Source: a virus
IMG/VR virus record: IMGVR_UViG_3300027751_001020
Span: 26,067-90,066 of that record
Length of the DNA: 64,000 bases
Direction: 5' to 3' (one strand)
Shown one piece after another: positions 6,632 to 63,993 of the stretch; the first letter of the stretch is position 1; every line of letters starts with the position of its first letter. Both the position numbers and the translations under genes were made by a program. Below the pieces are notes generated by a model that did no database searches, was not told the origin of the DNA, and saw only the letters and a program-made list of their open reading frames with translations.

Positions 6632-9600
6632 ATGCCAACATGGAAGAAGGTCGTCGTTTCAGGTAGTGGGGTCTCCCAACTAGCTAATGACGCAAATTAT
6701 TTAATTGACGCACAGACTGGTGCGATCCTTACAGGTTCCTTTACTGGTTCCTTTACAGGGGACGGTTCAGGTCTTACCGGCATCGCTTCTACTCTTGCTT
6801 TCAGCGGAGATTCAGGAACCGATACGTTAAACCTAAAAACAGAAACATTAACCATTGATGGTGCATCTGGAATTGCAACCTCAGTAACCGATAATAAGAT
6901 TACTATCGATGCTGCAGGTTTATCTGGATCAGCTCACACTCAACGTAAGGCAATTGAATCTAGCCTATCTTCTGATATTTCAGCTGAAGAAACTAGAGCT
7001 TTAGCAGCGGAAGGTGTACTTCAAGGTAATATTGATTCTGAAGCATCTGCAAGATCTGCAGCAGATTTAACCTTACAAGGAAATATCGATGCAGAAGCTT
7101 CTTCTAGAGCAGCAGCAGATACTACCTTACAAGGTAACATTGATTCTGAAGCATCAGCTAGAGAAGCAGCAGATTTAACCTTACAAGGTAACATTAACAG
7201 CGAAGCTTCTACAAGAGCTACAGCAGATACTGCATTACAAAACAGTATAAACAGTTTATCTGGATCTTCTGCAGCAGCCTTAGCTTCTAAAGGAACTGCA
7301 TTACAATCTAGTATTGATTCTGAAGCATCTGCAAGATCAGCAGCTGATACGACATTACAGTCTAATATCGACGCTGAAGCATCTGCTAGAACTTCTGCAG
7401 ACTCTGTATTACAGAGCAACATTACTAGTTTATCTGGTTCTGCTCATACAGCTAACGCTAACTTAAAATCTGATTTAACTTCTGCTTACACAGCAGCTGA
7501 TTCTGCTTTATCTGCATCTGCAGCAGCAGCGTTAGCCGGAGTAGCAGCAGCTCAATCTTCTGCATACATTGCAGCTGATACAGCATTAAGTTCTTCAGCA
7601 CACACACAACGTTTAGCAATCGAATCTTCTTTAGATGGTAAAATTACTACTGAGAAAGAAAGAGTTGACGCTATCTTATTAGCATCTGACGCTGACAAAG
7701 ATTCATTTGCTGAAATTGTATCGTTAATTAACTCAGTAGATACAGCTAACGATACAGCATTTGCAGGATTCGTTACTTCATCTAATGCAAGAGCAACAGC
7801 AATTGAAGGAAGCGTAACAGCTTTATCTTCTTCAGCAGCAGTAGCTAACGGTAACCTATCATCTGATTTAACAGCAGCTTTCCAAGCAGCAGACTCTACA
7901 TTACAGGGTAACATCAATACTGAAGCATCTTCTAGAGCAGCAGCTGATACAGTATTACAAGGTAACATTGATTCTGAAGCATCTGCAAGATCTGCAGCAG
8001 ACAGTGCATTATCTTCTTCAGCAGCTCAAGCATTAGCAGACGCAGTAGCAGCACAATCTTCTGCATACATTGCAGCTGATTCTGCTTTATCATCTTCAGC
8101 TCACGTACAGAGAGAAGCTATCAAATCTGGATTATCTTCTGATATCTCTTCTGAAGCATCTGCTAGAACATCTGCAGATTTAACTTTACAAGGTAATATC
8201 GATAGTGAAGCAGCTACAAGAGCAACTGCTGATACAACCTTACAAGGTAATATCGATAGTGAAGCAGCTACAAGATTAGCTAATGATAATATACTACAAG
8301 GTAATATAGACGCAGAGGCTACTTCAAGAGCAGCAGCTGATTCAACATTACAATCTAACATCAACAGTTTATCTGGATCTTCAGCAGCAGCTTTAGCTTC
8401 TAAAGGATCTGCTTTAACTTCTGCTTTCCAAGCAGCTGATTCAGCACTATCTTCTTCAGCAGCAGTAGCTAACGCTAACTTAAAATCAGATTTAACTTCT
8501 GACTTCCAAGCAGCTGATTCAGCATTAAGTTCTTCTGTAGCCTCTGCATTAGCAGCAGCAGTAGCAGCTCAATCAACAGCTTATATTGCAGCAGACAATG
8601 CATTAAGTTCATCAGCTCACTCTCAAAGACTTGCTATTGAATCATCTTTAGATGGTAAAATAACAACTGAGAAGGATAGAGTAGATGCAATCTTATTAGC
8701 TTCAGACGCTGATAAAGATTCATTTGCAGAGATTGTTAGTTTAATTAACAGTGTAGATACAGCTAACGACCAGGCATTTGCTGGATTTGTTACTTCTTCT
8801 AACGCTAGAGCAACAAATATCGAAGCTAGTGTAGTTTCTTTATCTGGTTCAGCTCATACAGCTAACGCTAACCTAAAATCAGATGTAACTTCTGCTTTCC
8901 AAGCAGCTGATGCAACTTTACAATCAGCAATTAATAGCTTATCCGGTTCTTCAGCTACAGCTTTAGCATCTAAAGGGTCTGCTTTAACTTCTGCATACCA
9001 AGCAGCTGATAGTGCATTATCTTCTTCTGCAGCACAAGCATTAGCAGACGCAGTAGCAGCACAATCTTCTGCCTACATTGCAGCTGATTCAGCATTAAGT
9101 TCTTCTGCACATACTCAGAGATTAGCTATCGAATCAGGATTATCTTCTGATATTTCTTCTGAAGCTTCTACAAGAGCAGCAGCAGATGTAGCTTTACAAG
9201 GTAATATTGATTCTGAAGCAGCTACAAGATTAGCTAATGACAATACATTACAATCTAACATTGACGCTGAAGCATCTTCTAGAGCTACTGCAGATACTAC
9301 ATTACAATCAAATATAGACGCTGAGGCTTCTGCTAGAACTTCTGCAGATTCCACTTTACAGTCTAACATTGATTCTGAAGCATCAGCAAGAGCAGCAGCA
9401 GATACTGTACTTCAAGGAAACATTGACAGTGAAGCAGCTACAAGATTGGCTAATGACAATACATTACAATCTAACATTACTTCATTATCTGGTTCTTCAG
9501 CAACAGCTTTAGCATCAGCTAAGTCAACTATCGAATCAGGATATGCAGCAGCAGATACAGCGTTATCTAGCTCAGTAGCTTCTGCTTTAGCATCTAAAGG

Positions 9601-12556
9601 ATCTGCTTTAACTTCTGCTTTCCAAGCAGCTGATTCAGCACTATCTTCTTCAACAGCTCAAGCATTAGCAGATGCAGTAGCAGCACAATCTTCTGCATAT
9701 ATCGCAGCTGATTCTGCTTTATCATCTTCAGCTCATTCTCAAAGAGTAGCAATTGAAACTTCTTTAGACGGAAAAATTGGAACTGAAAAAGGAAGAATCG
9801 ATGCTATCTTATCAGCTTCTACAGCAGATGCAGATACCTTCGCAGAGATTGTATCTTTAATTAACAGCGTAGATACTACTAATGATCAAGCATTTGCTAG
9901 CTATGTACTTTCTAACGATAGTAGATCAACAACTATTGAAGGAAGCGTATCAGCTTTATCTTCTTCAGCAGCAGTCGCTAATGATAACTTGAAATCAGAT
10001 GTAACTTCTGCTTACCAAGCAGCTGATTCTGTTCTACAAGGAAATATTTCATCTGAAGCTACAGCTAGAGCAGCAGCAGATACAACTTTACAAGGTAACA
10101 TTGATGCTGAGGCAGCTACAAGATCTGCAGCAGATACAACTTTACAAGGTAATATCGATGCTGAAGCAACAGCTAGAGCAGCAGCAGATACAGCATTAAC
10201 TTCTGCTTACCAAGCAGCAGATGCTTCAATCTCAGCTTCTTTTGCAAGTACTATTGCTAACTTAACTAATGACTATACTGAATTAATTAACATACCAGCA
10301 GGTATCGTTTCTGGATCAGAACAGCAATTAGCTAACTTAGTAGGTCAAGATGTAGTAGCAAATTCATTTGCTGGAGACGGTTCACAGTTAACCAACATTA
10401 CAATAGACCAAGCTGCAACAGTAGCTTCTACCTTCTCTAATGTTATATCTACAGTAGTAACTCATAACTTTAACAGTAAGAACGTTACCGTTACAGTATA
10501 CGACGACAGTGATAGAATGATTATCCCAGCGTCAATTACTTTATCAAGCGACAATCAAGTTACTGTTGAGTTTGGAGAAAACACTTCAGGTAGAGTAGTA
10601 GTAGGAAAAGGTGGTCACGTAGTATCTGGTTCAATTGAATTTAACAACGTACTAGGCTTAACAGCATTCAGCTCTTCAGTTGATGCAAGAATAGATGCAT
10701 TAGACGGTACATTCGCAACAGATGCAGATGTAGCAGCTCTATCTTCTTCAGCAGCAGCAGCCAATGCTTCATTAGAATCTAGCTTATCCGCAGATATCTC
10801 TGCAGAGGAAACTAGAGCTTTAGCAGCAGAAGGTGTACTTCAAGGTAATATCGATAGTGAAGCTTCTACAAGAGCTACTGCAGATACTACTTTACAGTCT
10901 AACATTGATTCTGAAGCAACAGCTAGAGCAGCAGCAGATACTGTACTTCAAGGAAATATTGATTCTGAAGCAACAGCTAGAGCAGCAGCTGATACAGCGT
11001 TATCTAGCTCATTAGCAGTTTCTATTGCAGCTGAGAAAGCTAGAATGGATGCAGTATTATTAGCAGCAGATGCTGATAAAGATTCATTTGCAGAAATTGT
11101 ATCATTAATAAACTCTGTAGATACAGCTAACGATCAAGCATTTGCTGGATATGTAACTTCTTCTAATGCTCGTCAAACAGCAATTGAATCAAGTGTAGCA
11201 GCTTTATCTGGATCTTCTGCCACAGCTTTAGCATCAGCTAAATCAACAATCGAGTCTGGATACGCAGCAGCTGACTTAGCATTAAGCTCTTCAGCACATA
11301 CTGCTAGAGAAGCTCTAAAAGCAGCACAATCTTCTGCATACATTGCAGCAGATTCAGCTTTAGAAACTAGTCTACAAGGAGAAATTTCTTCACTATCTGG
11401 ATCTTCTGCTACAGCTTTAGCATCAGCTAAATCAACAATCGAGTCTGGATACGCAGCAGCTGACTTAGCATTAAGCTCTTCAGTAGCAGCATCAATTGCA
11501 GCTGAGAAAGCTAGAATGGATGCAGTACTATTAGCAGCAGATGCTGATAAAGATTCATTTGCAGAAATTGTTAGTTTAATTAACAGTGTTGATACAGAAA
11601 ACGATGATGCATTAGCAGGATATGTACTTTCTAATAACACTAGATCTACAAATATTGAATCAAGCGTAACAGCTTTATCTGGATCTTCAGCAGCAGCTTT
11701 AGCCGGTGTGAAACTAGGAGTAGAAGGAGAAGTTTCTTCACTATCTGGATCTTCAGCAGCAGCTTTAGCATCAGCTAAATCAGAATTAGCATCAGATATT
11801 TCTGCAGAAGAAACTAGAGCTTTAGCAGCAGAAGGTGTACTACAAGGTAATATTGACAGCGAAGCTTCTACAAGAGTTACTGCAGATACTACTTTACAAT
11901 CTAACATTGATTCTGAAGAGGCAGCTAGAATTGCAGCAGATGTAGTTTTACAAGGTAATATTGATTCTGAAGAGGCAGCTAGAATTGCAGCAGATAACGC
12001 ATTAAGTTCTTCTATTGCAACTACAATCTCTAACTTAAGTTCTACAATCTCAATCTCTGGTTCAACTGGAGCAGCAGATGTAAACTTAGTGACAGATGAT
12101 TTATCAATTGTAGGTGTAGCTGGTCAAACAGAAACTACAGTATCAGGAACTACAGTATCAGTTGGATTTGTAACTAACCCAACAGTATCTGGTAACTTAA
12201 CAGTAACTGGAGACTTAACTGTAACAGGAAATACTTTTGAAGCTCAAGTAACTAACTTGAACGTTGAGGATAGATTTATCTTACTTAACTCAGGTAGTAA
12301 CTCAGGAGATGCAGGTATTATCTTTGGAGGATCAAACGGATCAGCAAACATTGGTTCAGGTATCTTCTTTGATAACCCAGCAGGAGTATTTGGATTTGCA
12401 CAAGGAATTGGCGCAGCAGACACATCAGCGACTCACCAATCTAAAATTGGTAACATCGAAGTATCTGCTTCAGCACCAGCAGCAGCTCCAACATTCCAAG
12501 GTTCGGGTACTATTCACGTAGATTCTTCAACAGGAGAATTATACATCTATAGTTAA
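6632..12556 (+). CDS. Giant (1974 aa) Ala/Ser-rich coiled-coil fibre protein
   Basis: 18-aa repeats (NIDSEASARAAADTTLQG), five DKDSFAEIVSLINSVDT modules, GSFTGDGSGLTGI and THN beta-module; C-terminal VEDRFILLNSGS domain. Confidence 0.8.
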   Translation: MPTWKKVVVSGSGVSQLANDANYLIDAQTGAILTGSFTGSFTGDGSGLTGIASTLAFSGDSGTDTLNLKTETLTIDGASGIATSVTDNKITIDAAGLSGSAHTQRKAIESSLSSDISAEETRALAAEGVLQGNIDSEASARSAADLTLQGNIDAEASSRAAADTTLQGNIDSEASAREAADLTLQGNINSEASTRATADTALQNSINSLSGSSAAALASKGTALQSSIDSEASARSAADTTLQSNIDAEASARTSADSVLQSNITSLSGSAHTANANLKSDLTSAYTAADSALSASAAAALAGVAAAQSSAYIAADTALSSSAHTQRLAIESSLDGKITTEKERVDAILLASDADKDSFAEIVSLINSVDTANDTAFAGFVTSSNARATAIEGSVTALSSSAAVANGNLSSDLTAAFQAADSTLQGNINTEASSRAAADTVLQGNIDSEASARSAADSALSSSAAQALADAVAAQSSAYIAADSALSSSAHVQREAIKSGLSSDISSEASARTSADLTLQGNIDSEAATRATADTTLQGNIDSEAATRLANDNILQGNIDAEATSRAAADSTLQSNINSLSGSSAAALASKGSALTSAFQAADSALSSSAAVANANLKSDLTSDFQAADSALSSSVASALAAAVAAQSTAYIAADNALSSSAHSQRLAIESSLDGKITTEKDRVDAILLASDADKDSFAEIVSLINSVDTANDQAFAGFVTSSNARATNIEASVVSLSGSAHTANANLKSDVTSAFQAADATLQSAINSLSGSSATALASKGSALTSAYQAADSALSSSAAQALADAVAAQSSAYIAADSALSSSAHTQRLAIESGLSSDISSEASTRAAADVALQGNIDSEAATRLANDNTLQSNIDAEASSRATADTTLQSNIDAEASARTSADSTLQSNIDSEASARAAADTVLQGNIDSEAATRLANDNTLQSNITSLSGSSATALASAKSTIESGYAAADTALSSSVASALASKGSALTSAFQAADSALSSSTAQALADAVAAQSSAYIAADSALSSSAHSQRVAIETSLDGKIGTEKGRIDAILSASTADADTFAEIVSLINSVDTTNDQAFASYVLSNDSRSTTIEGSVSALSSSAAVANDNLKSDVTSAYQAADSVLQGNISSEATARAAADTTLQGNIDAEAATRSAADTTLQGNIDAEATARAAADTALTSAYQAADASISASFASTIANLTNDYTELINIPAGIVSGSEQQLANLVGQDVVANSFAGDGSQLTNITIDQAATVASTFSNVISTVVTHNFNSKNVTVTVYDDSDRMIIPASITLSSDNQVTVEFGENTSGRVVVGKGGHVVSGSIEFNNVLGLTAFSSSVDARIDALDGTFATDADVAALSSSAAAANASLESSLSADISAEETRALAAEGVLQGNIDSEASTRATADTTLQSNIDSEATARAAADTVLQGNIDSEATARAAADTALSSSLAVSIAAEKARMDAVLLAADADKDSFAEIVSLINSVDTANDQAFAGYVTSSNARQTAIESSVAALSGSSATALASAKSTIESGYAAADLALSSSAHTAREALKAAQSSAYIAADSALETSLQGEISSLSGSSATALASAKSTIESGYAAADLALSSSVAASIAAEKARMDAVLLAADADKDSFAEIVSLINSVDTENDDALAGYVLSNNTRSTNIESSVTALSGSSAAALAGVKLGVEGEVSSLSGSSAAALASAKSELASDISAEETRALAAEGVLQGNIDSEASTRVTADTTLQSNIDSEEAARIAADVVLQGNIDSEEAARIAADNALSSSIATTISNLSSTISISGSTGAADVNLVTDDLSIVGVAGQTETTVSGTTVSVGFVTNPTVSGNLTVTGDLTVTGNTFEAQVTNLNVEDRFILLNSGSNSGDAGIIFGGSNGSANIGSGIFFDNPAGVFGFAQGIGAADTSATHQSKIGNIEVSASAPAAAPTFQGSGTIHVDSSTGELYIYS
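11222..11483 (+). repeat. 73-nt perfect direct repeat pair (11222-11294 and 11411-11483) inside the giant fibre gene
   Basis: Identical ACAGCTTTAGCATCAGC...TTAAGCTCTTCAG copies 189 nt apart. Confidence 0.85.
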
Positions 12557-12568
12557 TAAGTTAATACA

Positions 12569-12772
12569 ATGCTAAAAAGGTTTTTTAAAATGGGAATAAA
12601 TAGAACAGACAATACCCCAAATAAGATTGATAATCCGGCCTCCATTAATGAAAAGGAGGCTGGGTTCATCATCGCTAAAATGAGACAAGCAACTTACCAA
12701 GGTACAGAGTTTGAAACATTCTACCAAGTTATTTCAAAACTACAAAAAATAGTTGAAAATAAATCAAAATAA
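12569..12772 (+). CDS. Small hypothetical protein (possible fibre chaperone; start may be ATG 12590)
   Basis: Follows the fibre gene directly and precedes a terminator. Confidence 0.55.
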   Translation: MLKRFFKMGINRTDNTPNKIDNPASINEKEAGFIIAKMRQATYQGTEFETFYQVISKLQKIVENKSK

Positions 12773-12776
12773 AATT

Positions 12777-12796
12777 AGGCCTTCGGGCCTTTTTTT
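12777..12796 (+). terminator. Rho-independent terminator
   Basis: AGGCC-TTCG-GGCCT with a C(UUCG)G loop, followed by a T-run. Confidence 0.9.
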
Positions 12797-12821
12797 ATTA
12801 TCTTTTAATAAGAAGTCTAAC

Positions 12822-12828
12822 TATTTAT
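12822..12828 (+). promoter_or_regulatory. Putative late promoter TATTTAT
   Basis: Between the terminator and the structured leader. Confidence 0.5.
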
Positions 12829-12837
12829 TGTAAAGAT

Positions 12838-12888
12838 ATTATAGGCCCGAAAGGGGAGTGGACTTAGCAATAAGTAGCCAACCGTAAT
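12838..12888 (+). ncRNA. Candidate structured 5'-leader RNA (three-way junction, two GNRA tetraloops)
   Basis: CCC-GAAA-GGG; TGG-ACTTA-GCAA-TAAGT-AG-CCA; closing helix ATTAT(A)GG/CCGTAAT. Confidence 0.55.
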
Positions 12889-12896
12889 TTAAGTAT

Positions 12897-14051
12897 ATGC
12901 CAAACTGGAAAAAACTCATCGTAAGCGGTTCAGACGCTAATCTGAACTCGTTAACTGTAGAGACTTCGTTAAATGCCCAATCTATAACTGGGTCTTTAGA
13001 GTACTCTACACTTATCAATATACCTGCCGGACTAATCTCTGGCTCTTCTCAAGTAGATATTACTCAAACTGAAGGATTTACAACATTATCTTCCTCTCTT
13101 TACACATCTATAGATACTCAAAAAAGTAGAATAGATACAATCTTAGCAGCATCTGACGCAGATAAAGATTCATTTAAAGAAATTGTAGATCTAATCAACA
13201 GCGTAGATACAGAAAATGATACTGCATTCGGAACTTATGTAACGAATAACAACATAAGATCTACTCAAATAGAAAACAACCTTACAGACCTTTCCAGCTC
13301 AGTAAATACCCGAATAGATGATATCTCAACAGATTATAACGACTTAACAAATATACCTTCTGGTATAGTTTCGTCATCTACTCAAATAGCTAGTGATATA
13401 AGCGGATCTTTTGTTGCTGCTTCAAGTTCTATACATTTAGACATAAGTAACTTACAAGCTGAAACAATTAACTTAGATACAAGGTTAGATGTATTTGAAA
13501 ACTCTAAATTAATATCTTCTTCCGCACAAATTACTGGAGACTTAAACGTTTCTAATGTGACAGCTTCTTATTTTATAGGAGACGGTTCACAACTCACCAA
13601 CGTACAAACATCAGTAGTAGAGACATCTACAGTAGTAGATTCATTTAGTAATAAAACTACATTAACTGTACCTCATAATTTTAGTACAAAAAACGTAATT
13701 GTATCTGTATTCAATAGTACAGATGAAATGATTATACCTGCTTCTATAGTAACTATAGATTTGAATAATGTAAACATTACATTTAATTCTTCAACATCAG
13801 GAAGAGTTGTTATTGCTAAAGGCGGACATATAGTATCAGGCTCAGTGGAACTGTATACGTATAAGGAAACCCTAACAGGTTCATCTACATATAGTATAAA
13901 CCATAACTTGAATGAAGATTTTCCTATAGTTCAGATATATGGTACAGATAAAAAACAAGTTATACCAGCAGAAATAACTTCGAGTAATAGTAATCAAGTT
14001 CAAATTGAATTTAACACTGTTTTTAATGGAACAGTGGTTGTAAAAAAATAA
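12897..14051 (+). CDS. Fibre-related virion protein, paralogous to the 6632 gene
   Basis: MPNWKKLIVSGS matches MPTWKKVVVSGS; carries one DKDSF module and two THN/HNL beta-modules. Confidence 0.75.
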   Translation: MPNWKKLIVSGSDANLNSLTVETSLNAQSITGSLEYSTLINIPAGLISGSSQVDITQTEGFTTLSSSLYTSIDTQKSRIDTILAASDADKDSFKEIVDLINSVDTENDTAFGTYVTNNNIRSTQIENNLTDLSSSVNTRIDDISTDYNDLTNIPSGIVSSSTQIASDISGSFVAASSSIHLDISNLQAETINLDTRLDVFENSKLISSSAQITGDLNVSNVTASYFIGDGSQLTNVQTSVVETSTVVDSFSNKTTLTVPHNFSTKNVIVSVFNSTDEMIIPASIVTIDLNNVNITFNSSTSGRVVIAKGGHIVSGSVELYTYKETLTGSSTYSINHNLNEDFPIVQIYGTDKKQVIPAEITSSNSNQVQIEFNTVFNGTVVVKK

Positions 14052-20930: not shown

Positions 20931-22227
20931 ACTTGGAATTATAGTTCCATATAGGAATAGATATCAACATCTTGAAGCTTGGACTAGAGAAGTAAAACAT
21001 TATCTAGACAATCAAGGTATAAACTATAATATTATTGTAGTTGAACAAGACGATGCTACATCCTTTAATCGAGGAATGTTATGTAATATAGGATTTATAC
21101 ATGCTATAAAAAGAGGATGTACTTATGTTGTGTTTCATGATGTTGATATGGTTCCAGTTACAGTGGACTATACTCCAAATGATACTCCAATTCATTTATT
21201 TGATGACCAATTGCCTTTTGATAGCTATTTCGGAGGTATGACAATGTTTCCGGTTGAAGATTTTAAAAAAATAAACGGATTCTCTAATATGTACTGGGGC
21301 TGGGGATATGAAGATGACGATTTAAGGTACAGATGTGCTTTACATAATATAGATTTTGGCACACCTTATAAAACCTCAGAAGGAATTAGTAGAGACACCG
21401 CTATATTTAACGGTAAAAACTCAATCGCACGTATTCCCAATAACTTAAAATTTAGTACGGATTTTACTATAGAGATTTCTGGAAGGCTTGACCATGTAGA
21501 AATGGATCCAAAAAAAGTATTTGATCAGTACACTTTATTAAGTATAAGAGGAAATGAATTAAACATTACCTACAATTCTTTTAACAGATTCTCAGTGCAG
21601 CTTTTTGATAAAAGTTTTGATAAGTACACTATTAATTCAGATGTCTTTATTAACAGTGAATTTAATGTAAAACTACAATATGTAGCACGAACTAAAACAG
21701 TATCGTTATATGTAAACGATTCTTTAGAAGCTTCTACCACACTTAAAAACAGAATACTTGACTATAGTAAGCAATCGACAATTATTGTAGGAGCAGATTC
21801 AGAAGACACTAACCACTATCACGGTGCTATAGACAGTATAACACTATATACGAGAAAAGATGAAGTAGTTAACAGGTACTTAAAACCTAATAAAATAAAA
21901 TATATATGGGTTGACCATATAAGAAGAGATAAAGGAACATTAGATAATGTAGATGTAGCTCCATATGATGCACCTGAATCTACCGAAATAGACAGCACAG
22001 TACCTTATAGAAGAAAAGGAGACATATACAAACTTCCCCACCCGGATAACGGGTACGTAGAAGGAAGATGGAGAAGTGATTTAACTAGATGGAATCAATT
22101 AAGATATAATAACGAAGTAAAAAGAGGAGTTTATAATAACTCTAAAGACGGACTAAAAGACTGTGAATATATTCTACATAGTAAACAGTTTAAAGATAAA
22201 GTTTTACATTTAAATATAGGCATATAA
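20923..22227 (+). CDS. GT7 (beta-1,4-galactosyltransferase-like) with an inserted LamG/ConA domain
   Basis: VPYRNR, FNRGMLCNIG, FHDVD, YFGG, NGFSNMYWGWGYEDDDL; LamG-like segment FNGKNS...IVGAD...YHGAIDSI. Confidence 0.85.
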   Translation: MSKLGIIVPYRNRYQHLEAWTREVKHYLDNQGINYNIIVVEQDDATSFNRGMLCNIGFIHAIKRGCTYVVFHDVDMVPVTVDYTPNDTPIHLFDDQLPFDSYFGGMTMFPVEDFKKINGFSNMYWGWGYEDDDLRYRCALHNIDFGTPYKTSEGISRDTAIFNGKNSIARIPNNLKFSTDFTIEISGRLDHVEMDPKKVFDQYTLLSIRGNELNITYNSFNRFSVQLFDKSFDKYTINSDVFINSEFNVKLQYVARTKTVSLYVNDSLEASTTLKNRILDYSKQSTIIVGADSEDTNHYHGAIDSITLYTRKDEVVNRYLKPNKIKYIWVDHIRRDKGTLDNVDVAPYDAPESTEIDSTVPYRRKGDIYKLPHPDNGYVEGRWRSDLTRWNQLRYNNEVKRGVYNNSKDGLKDCEYILHSKQFKDKVLHLNIGI

Positions 22228-25574: not shown

Positions 25575-27196
25575 TGGCAGGAGTTTTTGCAAAAAGAGAC
25601 GACGAAACGTTTCAGGAATACAGAGATAGAGTAGTAAACAAATTATCCGGCTCATTTTGTGGAGCTAAATGGTATAATGCAACAATCTGGTTAGGAAACG
25701 GAACTACCGCTTCCTGTCATCACCCACCTGCACATAAAATACCTCTAGAGGAAGTAGCTAAATCTTATAAAGCTATTCATAATACTACCTATAAAAAAGC
25801 AGTAAGAAAACAAATGATGGACGGAGTTCGTCCTAAAGAATGTGAATACTGCTGGAAGATAGAAGACTTAGGAGCAGATAAAGTATCAGATAGGGTTTAT
25901 AAATCTGTTATATATACAGACGAAGAACTCAAAGATGCTAAAGAGAAATTTGGAGCAGGCTTTGACGTTGATCTCAAGACATTAGAGATTGCTTTTGATG
26001 CTAACTGTAACTTTGGATGTTCATATTGTAATGCTTCTTTTTCTACTACTTGGCAAAAAGACATTAAGATGTTCGGACCTTACCAGAATCTAGTATCCGA
26101 TGGTGCAGGAGCATTTCAACATGATGGTAAACATGCAATGCCGTATGGTAGAAAAAATAAAGATAATCCATATGTTGAAGCTTTCTGGAAGTGGTGGGAA
26201 GCAGAGCTGCAGTACACCTTAAGAGAATTAAGAGTAACTGGAGGGGAACCTTCAATGTCGCCTGATTTTTGGAAGCTAATGGATTGGTGGAAAGATCATC
26301 CTGAATGTGAGGTACCTTTTGCTGTAAACTCTAACTTAGGACAGAAGACACAGCTACTTGATGCTTTAATTGATTCAACTCATAACTTCAAAGATTTTAG
26401 TATATATACGTCTAATGAGGCAACAGGGTTACAAGCAGAGTATATTAGATACGGATTAGAATGGGATGTATGGTTAAAGAATATTTACAGAGTTAATAGA
26501 GAAGCAAAAGTATCCTCTGTTAACGTTATGATGACTATTAATGCATTATGCTTATTCTCCATTACAGAATTTATGGATGAAATGTTAAAACTAAAAAAAG
26601 AGTTTGGACATCATGCCGCGGTAATGTCATTTAACATATTAAGATTTCCTTCTTTCCAGTCTATTGTCACACTTCCTGTTAACGTAAGGATGGAAAGAGC
26701 TGCACACATTGAAAAGTGGTTAGAAGCTAATTGGAATGGAGGCTCAAATGGTTTTATGGATATGGAAAGAGACGGGGTACTTAGACTTATTGAATATATT
26801 AAACAAGTAGATTCAGGACACGCTCATACCTCTTCATTAGAGTCTAGAGAAAGAGATTTTAAATCTTTTTACACTCAATATGATAAGAGAAGAAAGAAAG
26901 ATTTCTTAACTGCCTTTCCAATGTTAAAAGAATGGTGGGACAGTATTCCAGAAACAAATATCGAACTACTAAAAGGAGTTAGAGACGGAGACGATGCTAA
27001 ATCTAACAGGTATGTTCACGAAGTACTGAAAAAAGCAAAAGATGAAGGATGGGTACTGAACCCACAGTGGGCTAATCCTGGATCACAAGAGTATGTAGAA
27101 CCAGACGATCAACAACAAGATGATATGATTGACTTAGTTGAACAACTAAAAAAAGATTCAGATTCTAAATTTGTTGGAGGAGTAGCTAAAAGGTAA
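25574..27196 (+). CDS. Radical SAM enzyme with N-terminal Twitch domain (#2, SCHH type)
   Basis: CGAKW...SCHH...CEYCW, CNFGCSYC, VTGGEP. Confidence 0.9.
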   Translation: MAGVFAKRDDETFQEYRDRVVNKLSGSFCGAKWYNATIWLGNGTTASCHHPPAHKIPLEEVAKSYKAIHNTTYKKAVRKQMMDGVRPKECEYCWKIEDLGADKVSDRVYKSVIYTDEELKDAKEKFGAGFDVDLKTLEIAFDANCNFGCSYCNASFSTTWQKDIKMFGPYQNLVSDGAGAFQHDGKHAMPYGRKNKDNPYVEAFWKWWEAELQYTLRELRVTGGEPSMSPDFWKLMDWWKDHPECEVPFAVNSNLGQKTQLLDALIDSTHNFKDFSIYTSNEATGLQAEYIRYGLEWDVWLKNIYRVNREAKVSSVNVMMTINALCLFSITEFMDEMLKLKKEFGHHAAVMSFNILRFPSFQSIVTLPVNVRMERAAHIEKWLEANWNGGSNGFMDMERDGVLRLIEYIKQVDSGHAHTSSLESRERDFKSFYTQYDKRRKKDFLTAFPMLKEWWDSIPETNIELLKGVRDGDDAKSNRYVHEVLKKAKDEGWVLNPQWANPGSQEYVEPDDQQQDDMIDLVEQLKKDSDSKFVGGVAKR

Positions 27197-63920: not shown

Positions 63921-63993
63921 GCCTCCGTAGCTCAGTTGGTAGAGCAGCTGATTTGTAATCAGCAGGTCATCGGTTCGAATCCGGTTGGAGGCT
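63921..63993 (+). tRNA. tRNA-Thr(TGT), CCA not encoded
   Basis: Acceptor GCCTCCG/TGGAGGC, D-arm GCTC..GAGC, anticodon arm GCTGA-TT-TGT-AA-TCAGC, T-loop TTCGAAT. Confidence 0.97.

Follow-up and report, generated by a model that had tools for sequence, protein, structure and literature searches.

A three-way-junction RNA family upstream of a fibre-like gene in Immutovirus-like phages, and its candidate role as a translational operator

The stretch of viral DNA analysed here (the window) comprises 64,000 nucleotides (nt) of IMG/VR record IMGVR_UViG_3300027751_001020, positions 26,067 to 90,066. The source record is a 104 kb virus with 35% G+C and 94% coding density, and it has a tail sheath that shares 67% identity with the sheath of Flavobacterium phage vB_FspM_immuto_2-6A (immuto), genus Immutovirus. 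The element under study is a GC-rich island of 51 nt on the plus strand (12838-12888), a three-way-junction RNA whose 3' end lies 8 nt before the ATG (12897) of a fibre-like virion gene. This gene (12897-14051, plus strand) encodes 384 amino acids (aa) starting MPNWKK. Its product matches virion structural families (PHROGs), and its N-terminal part is matched by immuto gp052, which carries the annotation putative tail fibre-like protein. The fibre label is putative, being taken from annotation and from modules common to the neighbouring fibre genes.

A paralogue of 1974 aa starting MPTWKK (6632-12556, plus strand) has the same N-terminal module, in which W4, K5, K6, S10, G11 and S12 are conserved. 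A sequence-only reading of this DNA was right that the paralogue lacks the leader. The 104-kb genome holds one copy of the element. Many loci carry a leaderless paralogue with this module further upstream; in most relatives this paralogue has MA.WKK at its N-terminus and ..I.IYS at its C-terminus. The usual upstream neighbour of the element is a small, unannotated helical-hairpin gene of 67 aa (12569-12772, plus strand). An intrinsic-terminator-like hairpin and U-tract (12777-12797, plus strand) close the upstream unit, and a TATTTAT(A/T) motif (TATTTATT, 12822-12829, plus strand) follows. The UUCG hairpin of the terminator (12777-12790) and the motif had both been correctly recognised.

The three helices are P1, P2 and P3. 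P1 pairs 12838-12845 with 12882-12888 and contains a bulged A at 12843; P2 is a hairpin at 12846-12855 with no linker to P1; P3 occupies 12860-12879 with a 2-nt bulge at 12876-77. With R for purine and Y for pyrimidine, the core of the family is G-R, C...G (P2), R-A-G-U, R-G, R-Y...G/A-U (P3b), two bulged bases, C-Y, A-A, Y-C. Its 5' part (12844-12846) holds the G-R of inner P1 and the invariant C of the first P2 pair. The middle part (12856-12861) joins J2/3 (RAGU) to the RG of P3a; RAGU is AAGU in 233 copies and GAGU in six, and here reads GAG(U) (12856-12859). The P3b hairpin (12862-12875) opens with an R-U pair (G.U in 204, A-U in 35) and has a variable apical part. The 3' part (12876-12883) consists of the bulge, CY, the invariant AA of J3/1 (12880-81) and YC. 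Folded by itself the element is no more stable than its shuffles (z 0.14, -0.27 and 0.12). The isolated junction is only marginally stable, and because it folds no better than shuffled sequence a single copy proves nothing.

Homologues were collected by four element-anchored scans and one gene-anchored scan and were matched to a structural descriptor. This yielded 248 distinct matches, of which 239 lie ahead of a fibre gene starting MP[NS]W (MP[NS]WKK), consistently placed and oriented in front of a single gene family. Two others precede an inserted HNH-like gene, three are at contig ends, and four are GC-rich and resemble chance matches. A covariance model found a full copy in 96 of the 99 gene-anchored loci, many of which were also in its training set; in the other three the gene is at the contig edge, and every locus with full upstream sequence (96/96) carries the element. 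The complete genome of immuto has a single copy (NC_055915.1, 137891-137947). A blastn search against cultured phages missed the element, and the immuto copy was located through the neighbouring proteins. Among 185,579 cellular genomes only three contigs of metagenome-assembled genomes (MAGs) hold the element, each with the same fibre gene, and these are probably binned phage DNA. The three contigs (L274, L281 and L284) are labelled Pelagibacter, Bifidobacterium and Flavobacteriales, labels that are not reliable host evidence.

In a MAFFT alignment of the homologues 96% of cells are paired, a percentage that leans high at the positions where the descriptor demanded pairing, and nine of 15 pairs show two-sided changes, which the descriptor did not impose. 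None of 500 shuffles reached this level, and slid alignments pair at 27-53%. Compensatory changes occur in all three helices: inner P1 is G-C in 233 copies and A-U in six, outer P1 is A-U in 174 and G-C in 55, P2 pair 3 is C-G in 140 and U-A in 67, P3a is G-C in 213 and A-U in 26, and P3b is also compensatory. On a low-resolution tree of neighbouring proteins, built without the RNA, the changes recur (22, 4, 7 and 19 steps). The structure is that of the sense-strand RNA, since G.U pairs are frequent: at two helix positions 312 of 478 cells are G.U on the plus strand. A DNA-level site such as a cruciform or recombination site was rejected, as those cells would be mismatched in DNA.

The element is therefore real and its three-way-junction structure, first proposed from this one copy with the correct coordinates, is confirmed; conservation in 239 homologues disposes of the concern that the fold might be peculiar to this locus. 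The conserved part is the junction itself (RAGU, AA, the closing G-C pairs and the 2-nt bulge), and 12 core positions are invariant across 72 aligned sequences. Arms and loops vary, P2 ranging from 8 to 24 nt with a variable loop. Two GNRA tetraloops had been seen in this copy, and they are present; GNRA loops are found in P2 in 117 and in P3 in 28 of 239 copies, and on both arms in only 11, and were rejected as a defining feature of the family. Conserved structure with compensatory changes and a fixed position support a sense-strand structured leader that would act in cis, and the proposed tie to one fibre paralogue holds in the 239 homologues with their fixed AUG spacing and in the leaderless paralogue without the element.

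The element is placed closely on the start site. The distance from core to AUG is 12-24 nt in 227 of 239 copies (95%), and the nucleotides left free between P1 and AUG usually number 8-13 and are never fewer than six, so that the element overlaps or abuts the translation initiation region, as do the phage T4 operators of the gp32/gp43 type. An apical GGCR loop is found in 37 of 44 variants with a long P2 and in 24 of 26 with a long P3, never on both arms. Its best downstream complement is mostly the start codon region AUGCC, and loop variants such as GGCG and GGUA retain this pairing through G.U.

The start itself is constrained at the nucleotide level (AUGCCR). Leader genes from the element-anchored searches begin AUGCC in 174 of 174 cases, four apparent exceptions being chance matches, and the leaderless paralogues in 9 of 93. 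Codon 2 is CCA or CCG, with a purine as third base, in 222 of 239 copies. CCG (36) exceeds CCT (13) at this codon, and gene bodies show the reverse (CCT 4583, CCG 698). The alternative GGC/GCC pairing that had been suggested for the element finds no support in covariation: AUGCC is unchanged in the six GA/UC variants, and codon 2 shows no covariation with the bulged base. A swap of the P1 3' strand to the start-codon GCC was rejected on the same observations.

Several loci depart from the usual arrangement. A subgroup of 35 copies lacks a promoter motif nearby; in these the upstream stop codon is at most 10 nt from the core, at the P1 5' strand, and an AGGAG-type Shine-Dalgarno (SD) sequence directly follows P1, abutting or overlapping its end. 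Where an HNH gene or a mini open reading frame (mini-ORF) is inserted, the RNA is followed at the usual distance by the start of the insert; the stop of the insert overlaps the start of the fibre gene, which would couple the two, and an SD has been added. The HNH-like genes (MPNY...; L002, minus strand, behind 1803, and L347:3380-3980) sit exactly at the fibre start; they are a truncated 82 aa and a 200 aa insert that take over the leader, and the fibre gene follows with an AGGAGG SD. In L308 and L380 the spacer behind the element holds a mini-ORF of 17 codons that has an AGGAGG and overlaps the fibre start; it is possibly an insertion remnant. Five loci (L003, L008, L031, L048 and L091) have a spacer of 114-126 nt with extra hairpins, repeated CCAAC words resembling the 3' core strand and a hairpin just before the AUG; these spacers are possible expression platforms.

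The TATTTAT(A/T) motif is a probable phage late promoter. Of its 42 copies on the plus strand of the whole genome, 28 lie in intergenic DNA ahead of structural genes, and the end of the motif is 10-15 nt from the first core G in 146 of 236 homologues. Because the motif is strongly intergenic and so regularly spaced from the core, the 5' end of P1 probably lies near the transcription start, by analogy with T4 late promoters. In the window the motif precedes structural genes at, for example, 410, 6594, 12822, 14072, 34086, 36236, 37999, 38582 and 39610, and TATTTATA is the reverse complement of the T4 late consensus TATAAATA. Most other leaders behind the motif in this genome are short and unstructured. 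Outside the window, at about 21900-22010 of G000:C1, a long leader with a bulged hairpin follows two TATTTAT motifs and precedes a MANKDLF gene (probable scaffold), a second candidate structured late leader.

A position close behind the presumed promoter in most copies would suit a transcription elongation element, a put- or nut-like antiterminator loaded just after the late promoter. We regard this as very improbable: the other late units of the genome have no such element, some 40 copies lack a promoter motif within 60 nt, and neither the AUG spacing nor the anti-AUG loops would be explained. The start of P1 a few bases past the promoter in most copies also fits a positive role, in which a 5' structure stabilises the messenger RNA (mRNA) or docks on the 30S subunit to boost initiation in hosts that ignore SD sequences; the six or more free nt before the AUG would then leave the start open. 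A stabiliser, however, requires no invariant junction sequence, the fold is marginal, and the anti-AUG loops of two subfamilies point to repression. No look-alike of the element was found in a Bacteroidota 16S or 23S ribosomal RNA (rRNA), and a positive role is in our view unlikely. The rRNA comparison with Hymenobacter 16S and 23S was a sequence-level search, beyond whose reach mimicry in three dimensions lies, and it returned no matching junction. The best 23S match, at L410:1636-1683 (9.6 bits), is a hairpin without the junction core and was rejected as rRNA mimicry.

The compact core, with its 12 invariant nt and variable arms, is also what a ligand-binding or catalytic RNA would have. Rfam 15 gave no family on the element or the junction core, at the gathering score or at E<=10, in the window and in immuto, in agreement with the earlier statement that no known riboswitch was recognisable. 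Elsewhere in the window Rfam places a transfer RNA gene at 63921-63993. In a new riboswitch class the junction and 2-nt bulge would make up a binding pocket, and a metabolite or ion held there would mask the start codon. The marginal fold is compatible with this, as is the pseudoknot-like (platform-like) anti-AUG loop, although that loop occurs in about 60 long-armed copies only. The riboswitch reading is improbable, considering that the element accompanies one structural gene family and no metabolic or transport gene, and that no cellular copy was found among the 185,579 genomes apart from the three MAG contigs.

Ribozymes of the hammerhead type are also built as three stems around a conserved core, a three-way junction in which the core is invariant and the arms vary. 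If the element were a small self-cleaving ribozyme of a new kind, it could trim or separate the fibre mRNA and leave a protective 5'-OH end, and it would work at a transcript 5' end and between cistrons alike. As had been noted from the single copy, the hammerhead core is missing: the alignment consensus lacks CUGANGA, GAAA and UH, the junction strands here are 0, 4 and 2 nt, and Rfam returns no ribozyme match. There are no permuted or mobile copies, the gene context is always the same, and cleavage would not need tight AUG spacing or constraints on the start codon, which makes a ribozyme quite improbable. Taken together, it seems rather unlikely that the element is either a new riboswitch aptamer or a new self-cleaving class, one that controls a virion fibre and occurs in Immutovirus-like phages alone.

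The small gene lies within 900 nt upstream of the element in 184 of 198 loci; it is absent nearby in 14, which keep a normal core. The protein model (predicted local distance difference test score 78) has helices at 28-40 and 45-64. Fold searches gave no significant match, only trivial helical hairpins, and an Atlas search returned only uncharacterised phage proteins. Mean column identity is 13%, with only G45 and K57 near-invariant, and neither the alignment nor the model contains a zinc finger or conserved Cys or His. The family occurs in one or two copies between both fibre paralogues (L407:11442-11624 and 11698-11922, for instance) and is possibly a fibre assembly factor.

A small gene upstream of a structured initiation region is also the layout of com-mom in phage Mu. 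By this analogy the structure would block initiation by default and the small upstream protein would open it; in the intercistronic subgroup a ribosome finishing the upstream gene could do so instead, and about 40 copies have a stop codon within 10 nt of the core. Com of phage Mu is a small protein that turns on the translation of its cognate mRNA (PMC6483171). The differences are that the small protein here is a poorly conserved helical hairpin with no zinc ligands and that the RNA is a three-way junction. A very divergent protein, missing nearby at 14 loci, sits badly with an invariant core, and activation of this kind is distinctly unlikely.

We favour instead a switch on initiation whose folded form would be off, because of the anti-AUG loops, the constraint on codon 2, the coupling of the HNH and mini-ORF inserts, and the marginal stability of the junction. 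The specific form proposed has about an even chance of being right: the fibre mRNA would begin with a translational operator that a protein stabilises. It is also favoured by the fixed short spacing to the AUG, by the SD abutting or overlapping the end of P1 in one subgroup, by the published finding that little structure around the start favours initiation in Flavobacterium (PMC7797042), and by the short, unstructured leaders behind most other copies of the motif in this genome. The phage late promoter would start the RNA approximately at the P1 5' end, and in a marine subgroup the element would sit between cistrons instead. A protein that reads the core would lock the marginally stable junction, which would then cover the part of the initiation region from about -20 to -10; where an arm is long, the apical loop would in addition pair with AUGCC, and translation would be turned down. 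As a guess, the most likely reader is a fibre protein of the M[PA].WKK family that has yet to be assembled and feeds back on its own supply, with the small upstream protein or a host protein as alternatives. The fibre is preferred since its N-terminus is far better conserved and is common to both paralogues. The small protein fits an invariant core poorly, since only G45 and K57 are conserved and it is absent nearby at 14 loci. Of the suggestion that a protein-binding operator sets fibre stoichiometry, the operator stands as our best reading; its reader protein is a conjecture, as is any effect on stoichiometry.

Several observations weigh against such an operator. Seven copies are 57-126 nt from the fibre AUG, and 162 short-armed copies, this one included, have no anti-AUG loop. 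Predicted accessibility of -20..+13 is not below the shuffled-leader control (0.55 vs 0.48). The ribosome may tolerate a helix that stops about 10 nt short of the AUG, and Pro2 could belong to the protein, as a signature that came with the paralogue. We know of no precedent for a fibre N-terminus that binds RNA.

The element probably works like the T4 translational operators or Mu Com/mom, to judge by analogy. The T4 operators (the gene 43 hairpin, the gene 32 pseudoknot and the RegA sites; PMC3014915) are likewise structured leaders adjoining the initiation region in a T4-like myovirus, with control by a bound protein as proposed here. They differ in being hairpins or pseudoknots rather than a three-way junction, and in serving replication genes for nucleic-acid-binding proteins rather than a late virion fibre gene. 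S15-type r-leaders resemble the element in that a compact junction, whose core is conserved and whose arms vary, precedes a start codon; however, no Rfam r-leader matches here and the downstream gene is not ribosomal. Candidate cis-regulatory motifs of phages, among them Rfam GP20-a and GP20-b and those of Fremin et al. 2023 (PMC10690425), are likewise covarying motifs at most about 25 nt from one phage gene family, but the present element has no Rfam match. The main text of that paper contains no 'tail fiber', 'three-way' or 'junction'; its supplementary catalogue may hold the element as an unnamed entry. With that possible earlier listing aside, we found no description of the element in the literature. 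This is a real phage RNA family, and apparently an undescribed one.

The core is unchanged across hundreds of freshwater and marine phages in which fibre length varies widely and the RNA arms vary freely; whatever reads it must therefore be equally conserved. As the element is short (about 51-55 nt) and is present in the cultured phage immuto_2-6A on a cultured host, Flavobacterium sp. LMO8, all of the readings are directly testable. Were the reader a small molecule, or were the RNA to cleave itself, it would be a new RNA class. If the reader is the virion fibre, a structural fibre would regulate its own supply through RNA, and the element would show how phages balance two paralogues that have one N-terminal module.
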